From: Escherichia coli
Lineage (GTDB): Bacteria > Pseudomonadota > Gammaproteobacteria > Enterobacterales > Enterobacteriaceae
Assembly: GCF_030384885.1 (NCBI RefSeq)
Contig: NZ_CP128615.1
Reading direction: 5' to 3' (one strand)
Length of the DNA stretch: 64,000 nt
Shown: positions 4,213 through 64,000 of the stretch, in pieces
Layout: every line of letters starts with the position of its first letter
Numbering within the stretch: position 1 is the stretch's first letter
Made by a program: the position numbers and the translations under genes
Notes under the pieces: model-generated
What the model was told of the DNA's origin: nothing
The model's database searches: none
What the model saw: the letters and a program-made list of their open reading frames with translations, nothing else

Positions 4213-5525
4213 TTACTGATGCAGTGAAGACCTTCCCGCATCCTGACTCACACAGCGATCGACCTTTTGTGTCCTGCCCTGGACCCGTCGGTTGCCGGAA
4301 GCGCCTTCATGCGAGGCATCTCCTCACCGATGCGCGTGACTCAAGAAGGGCCTGACGGCTTGTCTCGTTACTGTCCTGTCCGGGTTATCTGTCTGGAGAT
4401 TCAACTCTGTTTCCTCACAGGAGCTCTGTCATGGTTGATAAAGTTACCGAAGCTGCCGTTGTGGGTGGCGTGGATACACATAAAGATTTGCACGTTGCCG
4501 CTGTCGTAGATCAGAACAATAAAGTCCTTGGGACTCAGTATTTCTCCACAACACGACAAGGTTACCGGCAGATGCTGGCATGGATGACCTCGTTTGGGAC
4601 ATTAAAGCGAATTGGTGTTGAGTGCACAGGTACCTATGGTTCCGGTTTGCTTCGTTATTTTCAGAACGCCGGGTTAGAAGTTCTTGAGGTGACTGCTCCA
4701 GACCGGATGGAGCGACGCAAACGGGGTAAAAGTGACACAATTGATGCTGAATGTGCCGCTCATGCAGCATTCTCAGGCATCAGGACAGTTACTCCCAAAA
4801 CGCGTGATGGCATGATTGAGTCCCTGCGGGTATTAAAAACTTGCCGAAAAACAGCAATATCAGCCCGCAGAGTCGCTCTCCAGATTATCCATTCAAATAT
4901 TATCTCTGCCCCGGATGAATTACGTGAACAGCTCAGAAATATGACGCGCATGCAGCTCATCAGGACCCTGGGTTCCTGGAGACCTGATGCCAGTGAATAC
5001 CGCAATGTAACCAACGTTTATCGCATTTCATTAAAGTCCCTTGCCCGACGCTATCTCGAGTTACATGACGAAATCGCTGATCTGGATGTCATGATTGCGG
5101 CAATTGTCGACGAGTTGGCACCTGAGCTGATTAAACGTAATGCTATCGGATACGAAAGCGCTTCACAGTTGCTGATCACTGCCGGAGACAATCCTCAACG
5201 GTTAAGATCAGAATCAGGATTTGCGGCACTGTGTGGTGTCAGCCCGGTCCCCGTTTCTTCTGGAAAAACGAACCGTTACCGACTTAATCGTGGTGGAGAT
5301 CGTGCTGCAAATAGTGCACTTCACATCATCGCCATCGGACGCTTACGAACTGACGCAAAAACAAAGGAATATGTCGCCAGGCGTGTAGCCGAAGGACATA
5401 CAAAAATGGAAGCGATACGCTGTCTAAAGCGATATATCTCCCGCGAAGTTTACACGTTACTGCGCAATCAAAACAGGCGGATCAACAGTATCCCGATAAC
5501 AGCTTGACTCTTAGAAGGGCGTCCA
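4150..5525 (+). mobile_element. IS110-family insertion sequence nested inside the IS3-family orfB
   Basis: About 1.38 kb insert between HSD and QGSQY codons of the IS3 orfB; encodes an IS110-type transposase; no obvious terminal inverted repeats, as usual for this family. Boundaries approximate. Confidence 0.6.
4431..5507 (+). CDS. IS110-family transposase
   Basis: 358 aa, N-terminus MVDKVTEAAVVGGVDTHKDLHVAAVVD... (DEDD-type RuvC-like fold family signature). Confidence 0.85.
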   Translation: MVDKVTEAAVVGGVDTHKDLHVAAVVDQNNKVLGTQYFSTTRQGYRQMLAWMTSFGTLKRIGVECTGTYGSGLLRYFQNAGLEVLEVTAPDRMERRKRGKSDTIDAECAAHAAFSGIRTVTPKTRDGMIESLRVLKTCRKTAISARRVALQIIHSNIISAPDELREQLRNMTRMQLIRTLGSWRPDASEYRNVTNVYRISLKSLARRYLELHDEIADLDVMIAAIVDELAPELIKRNAIGYESASQLLITAGDNPQRLRSESGFAALCGVSPVPVSSGKTNRYRLNRGGDRAANSALHIIAIGRLRTDAKTKEYVARRVAEGHTKMEAIRCLKRYISREVYTLLRNQNRRINSIPITA

Positions 5526-5909: not shown

Positions 5910-7985
5910 TCAATTAACCCCAAGCGCCTTAAACACGGCATCGACGGGGTCTGCATAAAAGCTGATCTGGAATTTTGAGAACAACTCAGCAGGAACCGTT
6001 GGAATATCTGAGGCTGAGGCCATTGGGAGCAAAATACGCTTTGCGCCACTGTCCATAGCTAACTGAAGACTGCCTGCAAGATCTTGAACAGGATTGACGA
6101 CACCACCTAAAGTCATCTCACCCAAAACAACCATCTGCTCTTGAATCGGTCGGTTCATCAGAATTGAACAGAACGCAATTAATGCAGCGAGCGATGACTT
6201 TGTACTTGGCCCCGTATTGTGGAGCTCAACAACATGGAGGTGATACTCATGATCAGAAAACTTCGCCGACGCACTGATTCTATTCAGGTTACCTTTGAAA
6301 TAATCAAAGCCAACACGCACAGCTTCTTTCGCTGCGGTATTCGAACCAAGGCCAGACACTGAGTGTTTACCAGAACCAGCCATCATCTGGGTTTCATAGC
6401 GATATAACCCAAGCTGCCCAGTGCTTCCCTGAGTAACCAAGTGCACGACACCAGCGCGAGGTAAGCCCTCAGGAATTAGCTTGCTGCCACCTTGTTCCGG
6501 TACATTGATGAAGAATTCTTCTAATGAATCGTTATCGATGTAGCTAAAGTGCACATCAAAAAATTCCATTCCGCCAAGCTTTTTCAATTGCTCTTTGACT
6601 CTACGTCTAGTTTCCAGCGCATAGGTCAGGCAGGCTCTTACATCATCTTTTGTGTACTGTGCGTCGGGGTGTAGTAGCTTTAACAAGCCCGAAACAGTTC
6701 TGCGTACAGCAATTACATCACGCTGATTAAGGTTATTACCGAGTTTGAAGAACTTATCGATAGCATCCGCAAAACTTCTTTTGCGCATTTCACGCATGTA
6801 TTCAGCAAGATAGTCTGTGATTAATCCGTAACTATTGGTGAAAAACTCAGGACGCATCTTCGGTATTTCCCATCCAGGAATATAGGAATGGAAACGGTCA
6901 AAAAAAGCAGTGTCAATCATGGCTTCAGGAAAAGGTGCCAACAGATGACTGGTCTTCACCAGTGTCTCAACGCTTTGATTGATGTTACCGACGAATACCA
7001 TGGAAGCCTTCGCTTCGATTGAATCACGACCACGGGCAAAAGACCCTGACGCCATATAATCTTTCATTATTTGGACGCCGTCTTTGTCTTTAAAGTTAAT
7101 ACCCGCTACTTCATCAAAGGCGACAACATCCCACATTCCGACCAACCCAACTTGGCGCGAGCTCATGTTATAGAACAAGTTCGCCACAGTTGTTTGTCCG
7201 CCCGAGACAAGCAATGAGTTTGGTGAGCACTCCTTGTAGACATGGCTTTTACCTGTCCCTCTTGGTCCGAGCTCACAAACGTTGTAGTTGTTTTCAACGA
7301 ATGGGATCATACGAGTGATAAGATGCCATTTCACCCGATGCTCTAAGTTGGTTGGCTCCATACCCACGGAACGAAGCAACACATCCATCCACTGATCGGT
7401 ACTAAAATGTCTTCTGGTTGAAAACACCTCATCCATGTTCATGGACGGCATTTGTATCGGTTTTAAACTCATAATGGAGAAAGGTGATGTCTTCTGACCT
7501 TCCTCAAAGAAATACTGGACGGTAATAATGCACCAGATGCCGCCAGTTAATAATTTTTCGTTGTCTTGTACTATTTTGGTCGGTACAAGGGCATCCTTGA
7601 TACCCAGGTTCGACAACGCAGCTTCATAGACGTCTTTTTTCTGGTTGAGCTTAACGCTTACTTTGTCGATGATTTTAAACGTGCCGCGTTCACGGATCAG
7701 TGACTTCACTTTCTCCGCTTCATCTGGTCGGACATAGTTCTCAGCCAAGATTTTTTTTACATTATCAAGGCCTTGCATTACAACTTCGTCGTCATCGGAC
7801 GCACAATACATGCCTAGTAAATACTCAAGCACATAGACAGGGACGTTAGCGCCTTCTTTCAATTGCTTTGTCAGATCTTTTCGAACGACACGGCCTTTAA
7901 AATATTGGTTGAGCAATGCGTCTAAATCGGCGCTTTGCATCTGATTTTTTTCGTCTTTATGATCTTGTGAAAAATCAGTTGTCAT
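5910..7985 (-). CDS. brxL: BREX protein BrxL (Lon-like protease domain protein)
   Basis: 691 aa; last gene of a brxA-brxB-brxC-pglX-pglZ-brxL syntenic block; Walker-like GPRGTGKSH and C-terminal Lon-protease-like region. Confidence 0.85.
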   Translation of the reverse strand: MTTDFSQDHKDEKNQMQSADLDALLNQYFKGRVVRKDLTKQLKEGANVPVYVLEYLLGMYCASDDDEVVMQGLDNVKKILAENYVRPDEAEKVKSLIRERGTFKIIDKVSVKLNQKKDVYEAALSNLGIKDALVPTKIVQDNEKLLTGGIWCIITVQYFFEEGQKTSPFSIMSLKPIQMPSMNMDEVFSTRRHFSTDQWMDVLLRSVGMEPTNLEHRVKWHLITRMIPFVENNYNVCELGPRGTGKSHVYKECSPNSLLVSGGQTTVANLFYNMSSRQVGLVGMWDVVAFDEVAGINFKDKDGVQIMKDYMASGSFARGRDSIEAKASMVFVGNINQSVETLVKTSHLLAPFPEAMIDTAFFDRFHSYIPGWEIPKMRPEFFTNSYGLITDYLAEYMREMRKRSFADAIDKFFKLGNNLNQRDVIAVRRTVSGLLKLLHPDAQYTKDDVRACLTYALETRRRVKEQLKKLGGMEFFDVHFSYIDNDSLEEFFINVPEQGGSKLIPEGLPRAGVVHLVTQGSTGQLGLYRYETQMMAGSGKHSVSGLGSNTAAKEAVRVGFDYFKGNLNRISASAKFSDHEYHLHVVELHNTGPSTKSSLAALIAFCSILMNRPIQEQMVVLGEMTLGGVVNPVQDLAGSLQLAMDSGAKRILLPMASASDIPTVPAELFSKFQISFYADPVDAVFKALGVN

Positions 7986-8001
7986 GTTTCACCTCAGCGC
8001 C

Positions 8002-10674
8002 TTAGAAAAAATCATCTTGGAATGCCAAATCAATGGTTACCGCGTATTGGCTATAACGGGTTCTCATTTCCGCATTCTCAAGAACTAATGTGTATTGAGC
8101 GTTTCTATCGAACTGGGAGCCAATAAGCTTTAACCTAGCTTCGCGAGTACGTTCATCCATCACTTTACTCACGCTATCAAAGTTAATCGTTTCACGACTG
8201 GAGACTTCATTACCTTGTGCATCGACGATATAGACATCCAACAACCGTGCGACGAAACGCTCGCCTACAGGGTCTGTCTGAATAAATCTGACCTTGTCGA
8301 TATTGTTTACTAATTTGATGGGCTGAGTGGCTGCTACAACACCTACCGGTTGTTTCTCATGTTTTGCTGCTTGTTCTTTTTGTAGCTCTCGCACATGTAG
8401 TACCGGTACGCAGACTTCCTGTAGCATCGCTCCGCCATGCACAAACTTAGCACCACCAACGAAGTGGAAGCGTTGAGCCGCTTTTGGAAGCAGGAACTCG
8501 GTATCACTTGAGCCATGAGCCGTATCGTTAATTGAGCCTTTCCAACAGGCTTCATCTGAAGGCAAGTTATTACCAACGATATAACGTTTCTTGGCTTCTA
8601 TCGCTCCAGCAGGTTTGGTTTTCAACGAGGTTTTGTCAGCCGCTACAAGTGCTTTTTGTTGGAAGAGGAAGCCATGGTCAGCAGTGATCACAACTCGGCT
8701 GCCGTTTAGACGGTTGATGACCCGCCCAACGAGGTCTTTTAGCTCTTCAATGGCACTACGACAGGCTTCAAACGTTTTCTCTTCAGTTGCTGCCTTATCA
8801 CCAATCGCATCAATGGTATCGTGATAGATATAAACGACTTCTACGTCTCGAACCTTGTCACGCCCCTCCTGGTTACTCCAGCTCATCAGTTCCTTAGAAC
8901 TCACTGCCATACCACCTACTTTTTGTAGGATGGCGTTGCGGTTGTCTAGACCCTGTGAAGAAATACCATCCACATAAACAGCCGTGCCTTGCTCTGGCTG
9001 GTAACTGAGCGCCTTATGAGGCAATAATGCCGCCATCCCAAGTTGGGTATAACTCGGCAAAACGCCCAACTGCGTAGACACCTCAGCCTTAAATCGCTTC
9101 TCGTTGTTAATGATAGCGCCAAGCTCATTCGCAATTTCAAAACGCAGGGCATCAGAGATGATCACAAACACTCGTTTTGTCTGTTTCAGACTCAGTCGTG
9201 TGCGAACTTCTTTTTCATAGAAGTCATACTGGTGCGGTACGCCAGAAATCTGCCACTTTTCAAGTAATTTTTCATTGGCCAAGTGACGATCCCATGCAAG
9301 GCCAAGCTCATACAAGTACCAGTTGGTATAAATGCTTTCGACTTCGTCGTCGAGCTGACGCAGTATGTCTGCACCTTTACTCAATACAGAGTGCACATGC
9401 TCATTGAACAAACGGTAAGCCTGGTCAAAACGATAAATGTCTGTGGTATAGGCGTCGTACATTGCTTTCGCGTTATCAAAGTGGAACCCATCCACATAGC
9501 GATTTCGCAAGTGCATTAACTCTTCAGCGTTGCGGATAGCTTCATAAATTGCGAAGTATTCTTTGCGTGACAATGTCCAGTGGCTAGAAAGACGTCTTGA
9601 TAAGACCGTATCAAACTGAACCCGGTCTAGCGCTTTACTGCTATCGAGCAAATCACGAACTAAACCACGGATTATGGCCTGTTCCACAGCTTCGAACGTT
9701 TCGCATTCGATAAGCTCAACCGGATGGTACTGCCCAGCACGAGTCGAAATTTCCAACTGTTGGCTAAGCACCTTAGAGATGCTTTCGTAGTAAGCGGCGA
9801 AAGAGCGGCTGTCGCGCCAGCTCACCATAAACGCCAAGGCTGTCGCCCGGCCTGATGCGCTTTTTAGAACATTGTTAAGCAACCAATCGCGTTCAACACC
9901 TTCAATTTGGCTCCAGAATTCAGTACAGAATAATTTCAACACGAAGTCTGAGAAGGTTGGCTCTTCAACTGTATAGCCAAAACCCTCACTCAGATATGCC
10001 CAGAGTGAGGTCTCAAGATCAAACTTTCCTAGCTGGCTCCATAAAGGTTGACCAAGGCTTTCATCTTCGATATAAGCCGCATATTCGCGTAGTAACCCAA
10101 GCAGAATGTCCGACAAAGACGCAGAATCAGCTTTTACAACCACTGCCATCATCTTTCTGTCTAACGACAGTTCGTCTTCGTTCTCAGTCACCCACTTTTT
10201 TAAACCGGCTATGCGCTGTTTATTGGCAAAAAAGCTCTGGCGCTTACGAATGTGCGTGCGAAGCGCCATTTTCGGAATACCCAGCTCATTAAGCAGCATT
10301 GAGCTGTGATCAGCAAAAAACTGCTCGCTATACAAACGCACGTCTAGCAACCAATCGCGGTCAGGCTCTGGCTCAGCGCTTGGAAAATAGATAAGGAATT
10401 TAGCTTCACGCTCATCTACTTCAATGCGTTTTTTCACTGCCAATACAGACTCATTGCCCATATTGAGGATGGTCAAATCATTTGGAAGCACCCGTGCAGT
10501 TTTATCCGCCGATTTATCGTCTGTTTCTTTTGCAAGCCCTTCTTTTGCAATAGAGAGGGCGTTAGCTAAATGCTCAAGCTCTTCAGTAAAGCTTTGCTCT
10601 GGGTCGTACCAAAACACAATGCGGCTTTGTTCAAATTTGGCAGCAACGCCTTGTGCCAGTTCACTAATCTGCAT
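8002..10674 (-). CDS. pglZ: BREX protein PglZ (alkaline-phosphatase superfamily)
   Basis: 890 aa; position between pglX and brxL; size and composition match PglZ. Confidence 0.85.
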   Translation of the reverse strand: MQISELAQGVAAKFEQSRIVFWYDPEQSFTEELEHLANALSIAKEGLAKETDDKSADKTARVLPNDLTILNMGNESVLAVKKRIEVDEREAKFLIYFPSAEPEPDRDWLLDVRLYSEQFFADHSSMLLNELGIPKMALRTHIRKRQSFFANKQRIAGLKKWVTENEDELSLDRKMMAVVVKADSASLSDILLGLLREYAAYIEDESLGQPLWSQLGKFDLETSLWAYLSEGFGYTVEEPTFSDFVLKLFCTEFWSQIEGVERDWLLNNVLKSASGRATALAFMVSWRDSRSFAAYYESISKVLSQQLEISTRAGQYHPVELIECETFEAVEQAIIRGLVRDLLDSSKALDRVQFDTVLSRRLSSHWTLSRKEYFAIYEAIRNAEELMHLRNRYVDGFHFDNAKAMYDAYTTDIYRFDQAYRLFNEHVHSVLSKGADILRQLDDEVESIYTNWYLYELGLAWDRHLANEKLLEKWQISGVPHQYDFYEKEVRTRLSLKQTKRVFVIISDALRFEIANELGAIINNEKRFKAEVSTQLGVLPSYTQLGMAALLPHKALSYQPEQGTAVYVDGISSQGLDNRNAILQKVGGMAVSSKELMSWSNQEGRDKVRDVEVVYIYHDTIDAIGDKAATEEKTFEACRSAIEELKDLVGRVINRLNGSRVVITADHGFLFQQKALVAADKTSLKTKPAGAIEAKKRYIVGNNLPSDEACWKGSINDTAHGSSDTEFLLPKAAQRFHFVGGAKFVHGGAMLQEVCVPVLHVRELQKEQAAKHEKQPVGVVAATQPIKLVNNIDKVRFIQTDPVGERFVARLLDVYIVDAQGNEVSSRETINFDSVSKVMDERTREARLKLIGSQFDRNAQYTLVLENAEMRTRYSQYAVTIDLAFQDDFF

Positions 10675-53316: not shown

Positions 53317-53707
53317 TTATCACCTCATGACGTTTTTTGTCATTTTGAACAAAAAGTGTCATGTTGCAAGAAAAAAATCATATTGTTTTGATTTCGCTCT
53401 CAACAGAAGGGGGATGAAGCTCGACGGGCGTGCTACTAAATCACACTGCAGCAACACGCAGACGCACTTTTGACCATCAACAGCAACTCATACAAAAGGG
53501 CTTTGAGAAAGGTATTCAACTTGCAAGACAGGAGAGTCATTCAGAAGGATTCTGATTTTAGTTACGACCAGTGCAATGCTGAGCCTTATGTATCAGCGCT
53601 CGCCGCAGCCATGTAACCGAGCGTAGCGAGCGAACTGGCGAGGAAGCGAAGAGGAACCGTTCCGGCAGATAGCTCTTACGCTCAGCACAAGAAGAGTTTT
53701 CCATCCT

Positions 53708-55260: not shown

Positions 55261-55772
55261 TGATTTTTCAGGCATTGAGCGTAAGCAGAATTTATAAGTT
55301 TTGTTCCCTGGTGCTTCCTCGCTCACTCGGGGCTTCGCCCTGTCGCTCGACTGCGGCGAGCACTGCTGGCTCGATCATATCCGTGGCCGGAAGATACTAC
55401 TCCTCCCCCGAGTCGCTCTCCAGAGCCGGCTACAGCGAGACAACCCGCACGAAGATTTCTATCGTCCCTGCAGACATATTCGAATCGTTTTTATTAACCC
55501 TGGCTTCCGTCGTGACAGAACACTACGTCCTGTAAAAGGGGGACTAAGGCCCCTGAATCACACACCTGAATAATGCGGAGTTTTACGATAATGTCATTGC
55601 TGGAAACTTTCCTGACCGCTTCTCAGGGGGCAACAATCCTGTTCCTTGCCATGCTGATCTACTGGCAAAAGCGATAAATCCAAGCGGGCTGGCCTTTGGC
55701 CAGCTTCGCTGTATAAGGGGAAAAATGCGGCATATCCAGACATTTCACTAGGCAATTTGAATTCAGATATCT

Positions 55773-58610: not shown

Positions 58611-58841
58611 ATGCGCACAGTTTCGATATTTAAAAACGGCAATAACCGCGCCATCCGTCTGCCCCGGGACCTGGATTTTGACGGCGTCAGCGAGCTGGAG
58701 ATCGTCCGGGAAGGGGACAGCATCATTCTGCGTCCCGTCCGGCCGACCTGGGGCTCGTTCGCGCAGCTGGACAGGGCCGATCCGGACTTTATGGCGGAGC
58801 GTGAGGATGTGGTCAGCGATGAAGGACGCTTTGAGCCATGA
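58611..58841 (+). CDS. vapB: VapB/VagC antitoxin, second copy
   Basis: Protein identical to the copy at 2446; promoter region related but diverged. Confidence 0.9.
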   Translation: MRTVSIFKNGNNRAIRLPRDLDFDGVSELEIVREGDSIILRPVRPTWGSFAQLDRADPDFMAEREDVVSDEGRFEP

Positions 58842-58931
58842 AGAAAACCTGGATGCTCGACACTAACATCTGCTCGTTCATCATGCGCGAGCAGCCGGCA
58901 GCGGTGCTGAAGCGCCTGGAGCAGGCGGTGC

Positions 58932-58932
<1 letters not shown>
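58838..58932 (+). pseudogene. vapC: vapC, truncated after about 31 codons by an IS21-family element
   Basis: MKKTWMLDTNICSFIMREQPAAVLKRLEQAVL then IS terminal sequence TGTCAACGCCACGATG. Confidence 0.85.
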
Positions 58933-60440
<1,508 letters not shown>

Positions 60441-60604
60441 AAAACTGTCAGCGCTGCGAGGACGAAGAAAGTATTACGGCTAAAGCCGTAATACCTCCCC
60501 ATCCAGCTTCAAGCTATGTAGAAACTTATGTGGGTAGAGCAGTCCCGACAGGGCAGTACCGCATTGACAGGCCGTCAGGGCCACTTACGAGCTTGTATGA
60601 CAAG

Positions 60605-60642
60605 GGGGGCCGTCTGGATATAGCGAATTATTGTACGGTAAG
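60605..60642. repeat. Tn3-family 38-bp inverted-repeat-like sequence
   Basis: GGGGGCCGTCTGGATATAGCGAATTATTGTACGGTAAG, 30 of 38 matches to the IR at 34373 and in the same orientation. Confidence 0.45.
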
Positions 60643-61764
60643 CCTTTTTTGAACAGCCTTACCTATTGCTATAGAGGGGAACTCCTACGTTATACGCCGC
60701 TTTCAGGGGATTCGACCTTAATGAGACAACTCAAATATGATCGACAACTTAAACGCGATAGTTGCTGATAAAATCAATCCATTACGCGTTTCAATTGATT
60801 AAATAATGCACTTAATGTACAAAAATTCCCGATCTCAAAACTGAACCCTAAAGATACCAGGCATCTCCCCCAGGAAGCGCCCTCATGCGTTTTCCTGTTC
60901 CGCCCCTGCCACCTACCTTCTGTTTCATACTTGTTGTATTATTGTTTTTGTTTTCAATCCCCAAGGAGACGTCGCTATATGACTGTGCGGGAGACAGAGG
61001 AAAACATTGAACAAATCTTCCCTGAGCTTTCGAACTTAATTGATATTATTAATAAATGGCTTTCCCATGGAAACATTGATCCTGAACTGGCACACTTCAT
61101 CATTTATCTTCTTGATTACCTAACCACCACACACAAAAGCATATAAAAATTTTCCTTGCACATCCATTTTTTTGCGAATATTATTATTCCTGCTGAATAT
61201 GATTCAATATCGCACGCTACTCATCCATCCCAGGATAATGAGTACATAGGTTGAAGTTTCAACACCCCCATTACGGGGGTGTTTTTTTTACCAATAAACA
61301 CAAATCACACCATCGCCATACTCTGTTTGCCAGACATCGATTGGTAAATATGCGTAACTCGCTATAATACAAAAAGAAAAATCAGAACCAGAAACCAGTT
61401 TCCAGATAAAAAACACCCTCCCGAAGGAGGGGACAGACACATTCATATTTCCCAAAACAGGAATTTTTATTTTTATGACGCATTAATGAAGTTACTTCAT
61501 CTCCAGTAGATTAACTTCATTTAAAGTGGCGATCAATCATATTTATTACGACTCTAAACTATTACAACAACCACAATAAGATATCACCTCAAATATAAAA
61601 GATAACTCTTACAAAAACGTTCCGAAAACAAAAAATACAGATAAACACCAATAAAAAACAGAAAACTCTTACACATTTAAAGATGGTAAAATAATATAGA
61701 ACTGTTAGTCTAATGGAGAAGGCGCATCTGATTCAGAGCAATCTATTGCGAAGAATCAGAGTAA

Positions 61765-61806
61765 CAGGGCCCCATGATATAATCATGGGGCCCTGTTGCT
61801 TTTACA
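61765..61806 (+). terminator. Strong intrinsic terminator-like hairpin
   Basis: 14-bp perfect stem CAGGGCCCCATGAT/ATCATGGGGCCCTG with 3-nt loop followed by TTGCTTTT. Confidence 0.45.
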
Positions 61807-62184
61807 GATGTAAAAACGACCAATCATTTAACATCTGTTATCGGCACCGCCCCGGACGGGTTCGGCGCAAATATGGTATGGTACCAGCCCGGCAATTCAC
61901 CTGCCGTGCAATCTGACGAAGCAGTACCGGCGTATGCAGATATATCGTCCAGACATATCTGCCGCATTCAGGCGGTGAGTAAAGCCTTCTCTCTCAAAAG
62001 AGGAGCAACAGTTATCCACAGATTCTGGGGATAACTGCGAAAAGAATATGTGCCAGGAAAGTCGGCTCCCGGGAAAAAGACCGCTGGCGGCGCAGCTGCT
62101 GGATACGAAAGCTGAGCTGAAAGGATCCCGGGAGGACGTCCGTAAACTTCAGTCCCTGGCCCGTCATGACGGGAAGGTGAAAAA

Positions 62185-62826
62185 GTGAATGCGGATACCT
62201 GGACCCGCCTGCAGGCCTTCCGACATGCTCTGGAGCTGACTTCCTGTGAGGCTTCTCTCACCGCCGGGTATGATCACCTGAAGGATTTCCCGGCCGGTTG
62301 CAGCGAGCTGGCCAGCCAGACGCTGACTGATTATCTGACGGAAGACGGCAGCAACCTGTACTCCTGTATTGTCGGTATGCAGTGGGATAATGGTCCTGGC
62401 AGATACGGCCACGTCATTGCCGCCCCTGCCAGGGACTATATCGACCTGACCCTTGATCAGTTTCCAGGCTATCATAACCGGATTGTGGCAGAGCCCGTTG
62501 AGTCCGGCGGACAGCTCGCGGCAGACCTCAACAGGGAGCCTGCCATCAGTACAGCTGATGGAATAGTGGCCAGCGCATCAGATAAGGTTAATTACATTAC
62601 TGAACAGAAAAATCGCCAGCCAATGGTGATCATTACAGAATGTTACAAGCTGATCAGAATAACGGCAAGATTTATACCAATGTGCCAGTCATCTCAACTC
62701 TTCCAGCACCAGGTATTCCCTCGCTTATTTATCATTTCAGACGTTGGCTCCTGCAGTTTGTCCAGGAACACCTTAGATCGTTTAGCTACTGACTGGAAGG
62801 TGACACTGTCCATCCTGTCGCTATAG
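62185..62826 (+). CDS. Hypothetical protein (GTG start), translationally coupled to a 46-codon upstream ORF (62049-62189)
   Basis: GTGA start/stop overlap; no recognised motifs; 3' part overlaps a convergent ORF so extent is uncertain. Confidence 0.3.
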   Translation: MNADTWTRLQAFRHALELTSCEASLTAGYDHLKDFPAGCSELASQTLTDYLTEDGSNLYSCIVGMQWDNGPGRYGHVIAAPARDYIDLTLDQFPGYHNRIVAEPVESGGQLAADLNREPAISTADGIVASASDKVNYITEQKNRQPMVIITECYKLIRITARFIPMCQSSQLFQHQVFPRLFIISDVGSCSLSRNTLDRLATDWKVTLSILSL

Positions 62827-64000
62827 GGCTTGATATAAACCTGGCAGGCAAGGGATCTGGTTAACTCCTTTCCTTCCATAAAGTGTTTGAAGATCCAGAG
62901 ATACGTATCCACAAGCTCCAGCCCTGTACTCTGTGTCCCCGACTGGAAGACCTGCGGTTCAGCTGGTATTTCCGTTACATCCATGACCGGTGTCTGCGCA
63001 GCAGTGCCTGTCATCAGGATCCTGTCACTCTTTCGACCGACAGCTTATGGCATACAGTTGGGCTCGTAAGATCCAGAGTCAATAACTGACAGGGTTTATT
63101 CTGTCATCCTCCGGCAACAAAGGCATATACGATATTCACTTATTTTGTCGGCCCAACGGCTTTTTACAGTAGCTCGTTTTGCCCAACTGATGCTACAGCT
63201 CTTTGGTTTGCTTCATCACGGATATCAGCTCCGACACAGGCACAGCTGACTGGTTGCAACGTCTGCACTTCTCTGGACCTGAAACGTCAATTATCAGGAT
63301 TCTGACGATTAGTCTTAAGACTGTCGGTAAATTAAGTGATGCCAGTTGTCAGGATATTCATGGAGCCAGTCTGCATGCGCCTCTGGCGTTGAGACAAACA
63401 TATGAAGTGTATTTCGGATATGACTGTACGCTCAGGAAGTACGGCAGATTCCGTCAAAAATTACCTGTAAAGACAGACTTCAGAAAAAACAGTGCTCGCC
63501 GCAGACCGGTGACCGGGCGAAGCCCGCGAACCGGCGAGGAAGCGCAATATATCTGTAGTTACAGTGAGCAGGTACGCCCTGAAGCCTTCATAATCGGTAG
63601 TGTATGCTGTTTTTCCGGAATGATTTATCCACATATCCAGAGGCCCGATCCAGTAAATAGATCCATGAATGATCAATAAAGGATCCATTAAAGATCCCCA
63701 TATCGCTACAAACCTTGTTACTCATGGGCCGGGACCACGATCACATAAGCTGTGGCATGTTACTGATAAACTGTAATATGCTAATGATAAGCTGTATTCA
63801 GTAATGCATATACTGAAGTAAGCTAATGACATAAACTATGGTCAGTACGCCAGACTCTGTTGTTAAATACAGACTGCAGGTTTTTCTTCAGTCAGTTAGC
63901 GGGGCTCTGACACACGATTTGCTGTTTATTCTTTTACTGTCCACAGGCAGGAGGCTTTCTGGAAAACGAAAATTCAGACATCAAAAAACTGTTCGGCGAG

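Follow-up and report, generated by a model that had tools for sequence, protein, structure and literature searches.

The right end of the window (the whole 64,000-nucleotide stretch of Escherichia coli contig NZ_CP128615.1 that was analysed) is a known segment of the F plasmid located ahead of the RepFIB replication gene, and most of it is already known. It is very probably a mosaic of known and decayed elements that extends from a MITESen1-like miniature element (TIME) to the RepFIB initiator gene. From left to right it would consist of the TIME, a fossil of about 1.25 kb of a ColE1-type plasmid, three gene stumps and the region upstream of the RepFIB origin. A preliminary description had presented this region as uncharacterised; it is in fact F-plasmid DNA at 96-99% identity, since plasmid F matches 60428-63020 at 99.4% and 63340-64000 at 96.2%, and the segment is carried by some 300-360 IncF plasmids. 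The features discussed below are the following:

60605-60848, unstranded: MITESen1-like Tn3-derived TIME of 244 bp, with 38-bp inverted repeats that align with each other
60849-60917, minus strand (RNAII sense): putative RNAII 3' template block, 85.5% identity over 69 bp
60979-61146 including the stop, plus strand: orphan 55-codon ORF with a strong Shine-Dalgarno, AAGGAGA, 9 bases upstream, hypothetical in the F annotation (WP_000218294)
61156-61291, plus strand: uptR gene, with promoter at 61156-61184, RNA at 61192-61283, terminator stem at 61261-61283 and T-run to 61291
61341-61368, plus strand: promoter-like TTGGTA-16-TATAAT, 10/12 positions matching
61416-61431, minus strand: terminator-like hairpin CCCTCC-TTCG-GGAGGG followed by TGTTTTTT (terminator scan)
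61728-61797, unstranded: two hairpins, one imperfect (61728-61759) and one a perfect palindrome (61763-61797)
61821-61872, minus strand: decayed cer-like XerCD site, with XerC arm GGTGCCGATAA (61848-61838), spacer CAGATG and a degenerate XerD arm
61986-62099, plus strand: ColE1-type DnaA-box block, 73-80% identity to small ColE1-type plasmids
62048-62188, plus strand: 46-codon chimeric ORF, ColE1 origin-flank fused to a kfrA-like 3' end
62185-62826, plus strand: 213-codon ORF, decayed copy of a plasmid gene family of 264-268 aa
62694-63014, minus strand: 106-codon ORF, C-terminal stump (residues 266-354) of a 377-aa DUF3800 protein
63021-63340, unstranded: about 320 bp found here and in pUTI89-type plasmids, deleted in F itself
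63491-63543, plus strand: primosome-assembly-site-like (n'-pas / ssi-type) sequence GCTCGCCGCAG...GGCGAGGAAGC, 79% identity to pIGJC156 2060-2112
63625-63848, unstranded: sequences upstream of the RepFIB origin, with a perfect DnaA box at 63625-63633 plus three iteron-like repeats

The RepFIB initiator gene follows directly downstream, with a start that would be at 64001, and in identical plasmids this RepB-family gene begins one base past the window end. The stretch had been described as AT-rich, which holds for ~60850-61800 (GC 0.34-0.39) and not from 61800 onward (GC 0.47-0.57). Promoter-like sites are not enriched overall (7 versus 3.9 +/- 2.1 in shuffles). The segment at 63021-63340 has about 74% similarity to Klebsiella plasmid sequences.

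The TIME has its left inverted repeat at 60605-60642 and its right one at 60811-60848. The Tn3-type repeat that the preliminary description took as the left limit of the region is the left end of this element, so that 60643-60848 belong to the body and right end of the same miniature transposon. A global alignment with the 256-bp MITESen1 reference sequence (Table S2 of PMC13367494) gave 198 identical positions, and pYLPI6d 1431-1687 matches at 76% identity; partial matches were found in thousands of plasmids. A 5-bp target-site duplication is absent (the flanking pentamers are ACAAG and TAAAG), an absence to be expected if a cointegrate was left unresolved or a deletion occurred next to the element, and no second copy of the TIME was found here. 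The motif ACAAAAAT at ~60822 was considered as a ColE1 origin and rejected, as it sits within the right inverted repeat of the TIME.

A putative ColE1-type plasmid fossil

Immediately to the right of the TIME, positions 60849-62099 appear to be fossil remains of a small plasmid of ColE1 type, whose circle was opened at or beside the origin. This reading comes from three independent blocks, each of them matching different small ColRNAI plasmids. The first, of 69 bp, matches pPCP1 (L013, 3001-3069) and pR18.2256_3.3k (L015, 2161-2229) with E values of 3e-18 to 6e-18, and the similarity to ColE1 plasmids ends in the alignment at 60917. In live ColE1 replicons this RNAII 3' block is located just upstream of the RNA-to-DNA switch, whereas here its neighbour is the TIME, with no origin left.

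The second block is the cer-like site, which also retains the start of the accessory sequence. Positions 61829-61872 are 88.6% identical over 44 bp (E 5e-11) to 4260-4303 of another small plasmid (L016), the XerCD core of which, GGTGCTGATAA-GGGATG-TTATGGTAAAT, scores 20/22. The site in the window reaches 15/22 of the consensus (XerC arm 10/11, XerD arm ~4/11) versus 20-22/22 in five small plasmids, and a consensus scan of 60400-64000 detected no other good site. Its orientation is opposite to that of uptR, as is that of cer relative to RNAI in L012, L015, L016 and L017.

The third block carries the DnaA-box-like motif already noticed in the preliminary description. The motif is real: the DnaA-box scan located a perfect box, TTATCCACA, at 62012-62020, probably the ColE1-type box of the former plasmid, and an inverted near-copy, GGGGATAAC, at 62026-62034. 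Matches of 61-96 bp (E ~2e-11 to 4e-10) were found to pPCP1 (2812-2878), pR18.2256_3.3k (1975-2070) and L017 (1953-2012). The block stops at 62099, the point at which ColE1 plasmids go on with TTTTTCCATAGG, the origin T-run. In a functional ColE1-type origin the RNA-to-DNA switch TTTTTCCATAGG separates the DnaA box from the RNAII 3' block; here it is absent.

In a live replicon the order is DnaA box, a gap of 91-129 bp, the 69-bp block and then RNAI 256-283 nt further on. Here the RNAII 3' block comes first, followed by the AT-rich core, the cer-like site and the DnaA box, with a stop at the origin; 1.07 kb separate the 69-bp block from the DnaA box to its right. This order is circularly permuted with respect to the live replicon, which fits a circle opened near the origin. 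We infer that the small plasmid would have joined an ancestor of F through a cointegrate mediated by the TIME, an event that would explain the missing direct repeat at the TIME, and that a subsequent deletion would have eliminated the other TIME copy, the final part of the plasmid as far as the origin and the 5' part of kfrA. Plasmid pRHB07-C12_2 has a deletion of 61768-62002 beginning within the palindrome and diverges after 62076, which supports a module boundary there. Searches with exact patterns detected no live relative of the putative fossil, either in metagenome contigs (DnaA-box variant plus origin; origin plus 69-bp-block variant) or in species-representative genomes (uptR core; 69-bp-block variant). 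If the reading is correct, this would be a concrete case in which a large conjugative plasmid captured a small one by means of a miniature Tn3-type element.

Between the first two blocks extends an AT-rich core (60918-61828), at the left edge of which the GC content drops abruptly from ~50% to 34-39%. Distant BLASTN searches of 60918-61400 and 61290-61830 against 72,556 plasmids retrieved only 361 F-type records, with at least 90% identity, and no relative outside F-type plasmids. The core has no similarity to the RNAII bodies of ColE1 plasmids either, and part of the fossil could therefore be foreign DNA. The 55-codon ORF reported in this core is real, with its coordinates shifted by three bases to 60979-61146. 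Its homologues are confined to the F lineage (at least 76% identity) and include variants with a frameshift or with deletions of 27 and 39 nt; the product has no Pfam or NCBIfam match. The promoter-like sequence is also present, at 61341-61368 rather than 61351-61379; it is not followed by any ORF and has no relative outside F-type plasmids. Both hairpins previously proposed were recovered, the larger with a perfect stem of 16 bp instead of 14 (arms at 61763-61778 and 61782-61797, 3-nt loop) that is followed on the plus strand by GCTTTT. The pUTI89-type plasmids lack 61656-61730.

uptR and the position of RNAI

The suggestion that a small-RNA gene might be located here was right, and the RNA turned out to be one already described, UptR. 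It matches Rfam model RF02568 along its whole length (positions 1-92 of 92) with 123.3 bits, above the gathering threshold of 100, and an E value of 2e-21. The promoter-like sequence and hairpins that had been taken as the clue are not part of it, and the actual transcript, at 61192-61283, had been overlooked. A promoter, TTGCAC-17-TATTAT, ends 7 nt ahead of 61192, and an intrinsic terminator made of a 9-bp GC-rich stem followed by T8 was predicted at 61261-61291; the z-score of the fold is -3.3. The gene forms a transcription unit of its own, with a sigma-70 promoter and an intrinsic terminator, and is likely still functional. It is carried, unannotated, by F and F' plasmids, and among F-type variants, in which polymorphism is sparse, it is no more conserved than its flanks. 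In work from 2001 UptR is said to be a multicopy suppressor of export toxicity, and in the full-text literature we found only a passing mention.

uptR starts at a distance of 274 nt from the 69-bp block and has the strand of RNAI, which is found at 256-283 nt in L012, L013, L015, L016 and L017. The presence of uptR in the RNAI position of ColE1 replicons, on the same strand and without a match to the RNAI model, is possibly a new observation. That uptR descended from the RNAI of the fossil plasmid is a tentative explanation, to which we give somewhat less than an even chance. A random gene placed in either strand of ~900 bp would coincide in this way in only ~1-2% of cases, and no other sRNA unit in the fossil is complete from promoter to terminator. 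Both points argue against the other explanation, in which the AT-rich core (~60918-61828) would be an unrelated, horizontally acquired insert that replaced the RNAII/RNAI part and the position of uptR would be a coincidence. This has close to an even chance of being correct, and several results are in its favour. Besides the abrupt fall in GC content at 60918 and the lack of sequence similarity to RNAII or RNAI regions, the RNAI covariance model with its three stem-loops (RF00106) gave no match at E<=10 on 61120-61480, compared with 62-90 bits on five real plasmids. The alignment z-scores of uptR to five RNAIs were only 1.8-3.8, versus 7-20 among real RNAIs, and the promoter scan detected no convincing RNAII promoter to the right of uptR. 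In ColE1 replicons the RNAII primer, to whose 5' end RNAI is fully antisense, has its promoter right after the RNAI terminator. Here minus-strand promoter-like sites were found only within or upstream of uptR and none at 61290-61345; a fossil need not keep one. The UptR model had no match in the scans of two real ColE1 plasmids.

Under descent from RNAI, uptR could be what survives of the copy control of a ColE1-type plasmid that was tiny, AT-rich and highly divergent, namely its antisense RNA, a proposal that we advance with the same reserve as the descent itself. Once the plasmid had lost its origin, an RNAI-like uptR would have persisted, or else have been exapted as an sRNA acting in trans. 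If true, this would explain why an sRNA assigned to E. coli is confined to F-type plasmids, and the putative fossil offers a testable origin for the orphan UptR.

Gene stumps and origin sequences ahead of RepFIB

The coupling of the small ORFs to the right of 62048 had been described correctly: the 46-codon ORF (62048-62188) and the 213-codon ORF (62185-62826) overlap by GTGA, and the 106-codon ORF (62694-63014) is convergent. Their products gave no match in Pfam, NCBIfam and PADLOC scans. They had been considered unrecognisable, yet homology searches identified them as fragments of a kfrA-like gene, of the 264-268-aa family and of a DUF3800 gene. The ATG of the 46-codon ORF is within a stretch conserved in ColE1 plasmids; its first ~12-17 codons run through the ColE1 origin-flank and the kfrA-like part begins at ~62084. 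By tblastn, residues 167-204 of a 204-aa KfrA_N protein encoded in another plasmid locus (L008) match this ORF, with the last 10 aa identical; only the last ~35 codons of kfrA are kept. The KfrA_N domain (PF11740) scores 75.7 bits in the full-length L008 protein and was not detected by Pfam in the 46-aa product.

The 213-aa product retains an intact N-terminal part of ~115 aa, has lost about 55 aa to an internal deletion and ceases to align with the family beyond IITECYK (~62670); the last ~50 codons are the antisense of the DUF3800 stump. The N-terminal domain retains the invariant Cys, His and Asp of the family and is possibly still functional. The 106-aa product is 66% identical (tblastn, E 2e-33) to the 377-aa DUF3800 protein, and its DNA is 77.5% identical to L008 6877-7218. 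The full-length protein contains DUF3800 (PF12686) at residues 2-301 with 30.1 bits (threshold 21), and the domain had no Pfam match in the 106-aa product.

The coupled small ORFs are by-products of fusions. The novel accessory module put forward in the preliminary description, consisting of coupled 46-aa and 213-aa proteins and a convergent 106-aa protein with a regulatory RNA of their own, is most improbable; homology to disrupted genes is the very outcome which that description had named as speaking against it. The GTGA overlap, the hypothetical protein annotated for the 213-aa ORF in hundreds of plasmids and the conserved Cys, His and Asp would speak for it. However, each of the three ORFs is what is left, after truncation or fusion, of a longer gene that exists intact elsewhere, the smallest starts inside ColE1 origin-flank DNA and the 213-codon ORF ends in codons antisense to another stump.

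Further to the right, the iteron scan located repeats at 63743-63762, 63785-63804 and 63829-63848. The identical locus L001 contains the downstream iterons and the initiator gene, so that iterons and a DnaA box flank a RepB-family initiator gene, as in a RepFIB origin, and these origin sequences are likely still functional. The pas-like sequence at 63491-63543, which presumably resembles the n' site of pBR322, has two further copies in the window. We also considered uptR as the source of the Col156 calls that PlasmidFinder makes on IncF plasmids, and rejected the idea, as pIGJC156 is a Rep-protein plasmid and shares with the window only the ~53-bp pas-like sequence.

Single-strand initiation (ssi) signals are known in F-type plasmids. 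Together with the three pas-like copies, the perfect DnaA box with its inverted partner at 62012-62034 and the second perfect box at 63625, this could suggest that the ColE1-like DnaA-box block and the pas-like sequences have been retained as primosome-loading signals for RepFIB or conjugative replication. We consider this unlikely, as the DnaA-box block is 2 kb away from the RepFIB iterons and pRHB07-C12_2 persists although it lacks 61768-62002 as well as all sequence past 62076.

The practical value of these results is in annotation. In thousands of IncF records the hypothetical proteins called in this region are gene stumps, while uptR, the TIME and the putative ColE1 fossil are left unannotated. 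The understanding of the known systems is unchanged.

Comparison with known systems

Like MITESen1, the TIME has 38-bp Tn3-type terminal inverted repeats, a size of ~250 bp and no ORF (none of transposase size), and is plasmid-borne, small ColRNAI plasmids included. It differs in its length (244 versus 256 bp), in a sequence divergence of ~20%, in the lack of a 5-bp direct repeat and in being present here as a single copy. The putative fossil resembles ColE1/pMB1-type replicons such as pPCP1 and the small ColRNAI plasmids in its three blocks, conserved at 73-89%, and live ColE1 replicons in their relative orientations and in the spacing to the sRNA gene. Unlike them, it has a permuted order, has lost the origin switch and ~90 bp around it, contains a non-homologous AT-rich sequence in place of the RNAII body and an sRNA that fails the RNAI model, and has a degenerate XerD arm and no rop or mob genes. 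The uptR gene differs from the RF02568 consensus by one substitution in the terminator loop.

The stumps keep the gene order and the 4-bp overlap of the kfrA / 264-268-aa gene / DUF3800 block of L008, with 75-83% DNA identity in the retained parts. In contrast to that block, kfrA is here devoid of the entire KfrA_N DNA-binding domain, the middle gene is internally deleted with its C-terminus replaced, and the DUF3800 gene lacks the N-terminal 265 residues. Only the upstream half of the RepFIB origin is within the window, and F itself does not have 63021-63340. As in RepFIB of F/P307, the sequences are directly upstream of a RepB-family gene, with a DnaA box and with iteron-like repeats in the orientation opposite to that of the downstream iterons.

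F-type plasmid origin of the region

The stretch 60643-64000 is real sequence and known F-plasmid DNA, composed of a Tn3-derived inverted-repeat miniature element (TIME), a ColE1-type fossil in which the known small-RNA gene uptR lies, the stumps of three genes and the flank of the RepFIB origin. Plasmid F matches the window at 99.4% identity over 60428-63020 and at 96.2% over 63340-64000, with 63021-63340 absent from F itself. Among the 288 plasmid records covering at least 80% of 60643-64000 the best 25 showed 98.7-100% identity, and 319 E. coli genome records reached this coverage. The RepB-family initiator (RepFIB) begins one base past the window end in plasmids identical over this stretch, and plasmid F has its RepB initiator in the same order. 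RefSeq annotates here only one or two "hypothetical proteins".

Features of the region and of the adjacent window
53595-53647, plus strand: pas-like copy
55303-55377, minus strand: pas-like copy
58611-60429: vapB, a truncated vapC and a decayed IS21 copy, in this order
60605-60848: 244-bp TIME (right inverted repeat 60811-60848)
60849-60917: 69-bp block, RNAII 3' template (85.5%, E about 5e-18)
61341-61368: promoter-like site
61416-61431, minus strand: terminator-like hairpin
61763-61797: 16-bp palindrome, deletion end-point in one plasmid lineage
61829-61872: 44-bp block (88.6%, E 5e-11)
61986-62052/62084: DnaA-box block (73-80%, E about 2e-11 to 4e-10)
63491-63543, plus strand: pas-like sequence
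63625-63633: perfect DnaA box
63743-63848: iteron-like repeats, inverted relative to the repeats downstream of the rep gene

On the left side the F-type sequence is interrupted at ~60428 by the decayed IS21 copy, in which istB carries a frameshift and an internal stop and istA is truncated, lacking its N-terminus. F and pUTI89-type plasmids have ~250 bp more in common on this side. In the neighbouring-plasmid loci L001 and L002 a gene for an AAA-ATPase/ATP-dependent nuclease and, after it, one for a UvrD-like helicase form a defence-system-like pair flanked by two vapBC loci; the pair is located at ~7113-9682, left of the part collinear with the window and absent from that part. Three deletions are lineage-specific: 61656-61730 in pUTI89-type plasmids, 61768-62002 in pRHB07-C12_2, which begins within the 16-bp palindrome, and 63021-63340 in F.

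The right end of the region is RepFIB. The three pas-like copies in the window (~53-75 bp, GCTCGCCGCAG...GCGAGGAAGC) are 78-83% identical to positions 2047-2122 of pIGJC156 (Col156) and resemble the n'-type primosome assembly site of ColE1/pBR322.

The miniature transposon and the ColE1-type fossil

The "Tn3-type repeat" placed to the left of the region in the preliminary description is the left inverted repeat of the TIME, whose right one lies inside the region. The element shares 198 identical positions with MITESen1 in a global alignment (sequence from Table S2 of PMC13367494), and a copy on the 2.4-kb ColRNAI plasmid pYLPI6d matches it at 76% identity. Elements of this kind are known as TIMEs and transpose by the paste-and-copy route of Tn3, passing through cointegrates (PMC13367494). 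No target duplication was found at the TIME, the flanking pentamers being ACAAG and TAAAG.

Three short blocks of the window match small ColRNAI plasmids, whose replicons were located by Rfam RNAI hits. In these plasmids the DnaA-box block is followed by a 91-129-bp gap with the origin, by the 69-bp block and, 256-283 nt beyond it on the same strand, by RNAI. The window has the 69-bp block on the left, abutting the TIME, followed 1.07 kb further right by the DnaA-box block, as expected for a circular plasmid opened near its origin. The DnaA box noticed earlier is thus the ColE1-type DnaA box of the fossil. The 44-bp block corresponds to the XerC arm of a cer-type site with the start of its accessory sequence, and in one comparison plasmid (L016) it coincides with a XerCD core scoring 20/22. 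The XerD arm of the window's cer-like site has decayed (15/22); its orientation to uptR is that of cer to RNAI in four real plasmids.

In alignment A4 the ColE1 homology reaches GGCGGCGC at ~62099 and ends where the plasmids go on with TTTTTCCATAGG. This end (62085-62100) is within a few bases of the live ColE1 RNA-to-DNA switch, so that the right junction of the fossil coincides with the replication start point, which may be a coincidence or a clue to the mode of integration. The fossil is also present in pRHB07-C12_2, where the sequence diverges past 62076, indicating a module boundary there. In the history we propose, an ancestor of F would first have acquired the small plasmid through a TIME-mediated cointegrate. 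A deletion would subsequently have removed the origin stretch together with the other TIME copy and the 5' part of kfrA.

The AT-rich core and uptR

The AT-richness described for the whole region holds for 60850-61800 (GC 0.34-0.39) and not for the rest. No relative of 60918-61828 was found outside 361 F-type plasmids, nor did it align with RNAII bodies. The promoter-like hexamers, hairpins and DnaA box are all present at slightly shifted coordinates, and the promoter-like sites are not enriched against shuffles. A good Shine-Dalgarno sequence precedes the 55-codon ORF, for which no homologue was found outside the F lineage; frameshift or deletion forms of it exist.

The small-RNA gene suspected here turned out to be uptR, a full-length match to RF02568 (123.3 bits, threshold 100) with a predicted promoter (TTGCAC-17-TATTAT) and intrinsic terminator. 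Matches in complete E. coli genomes were mostly on plasmids, F' included (351 of 366), the other 15 being in chromosome records, one of them of an F'-carrying laboratory strain. Measured from the 69-bp block, the gene starts after 274 nt on the same strand, which is exactly the position of RNAI. Against descent from the fossil's RNAI, the RNAI covariance model gave no match to uptR even at E<=10, sequence z-scores with five RNAIs were 1.8-3.8 (7-20 among real RNAIs), no RNAII promoter was evident and conservation was not above that of the flanks. Weighing position against these results, we regard such a descent as somewhat less likely than not; it is the only idea here that is possibly new. 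Exact-pattern scans of metagenome contigs and species-representative genomes found no live relative able to settle it.

Gene stumps and their full-length relatives

The ORFs and the GTGA overlap exist with small coordinate shifts, but the novel module built on them does not hold, since by homology of their products the 46-, 213- and 106-codon ORFs are stumps of longer genes. Homologues of the 213-aa product mostly have 264-268 aa; in the F-type copy the first ~115 residues are retained, ~55 internal ones are missing and homology ends past IITECYK (~62670). In related plasmids the 264-268-aa gene overlaps an upstream 204-aa KfrA_N gene by 4 bp and faces a downstream 377-aa DUF3800 gene. The 46-aa ORF shares its C-terminal 10 residues with the KfrA_N protein but has its ATG within the ColE1 origin flank, which makes it a fusion artefact. 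The 106-aa ORF matches the DUF3800 protein at residues 266-354 (66% identity, E 2e-33).

The full-length 264-268-aa proteins had no Pfam, NCBIfam or PADLOC model and may represent an undescribed plasmid enzyme family. Their genes are found after kfrA with the 4-bp overlap or 30 bp past a LPD7-domain relaxase-like gene. Cys43, His80 and Asp91 are invariant, and the fold resembles those of the Cys-His-Asp enzymes of the SseI, protein-glutaminase and LapG types.
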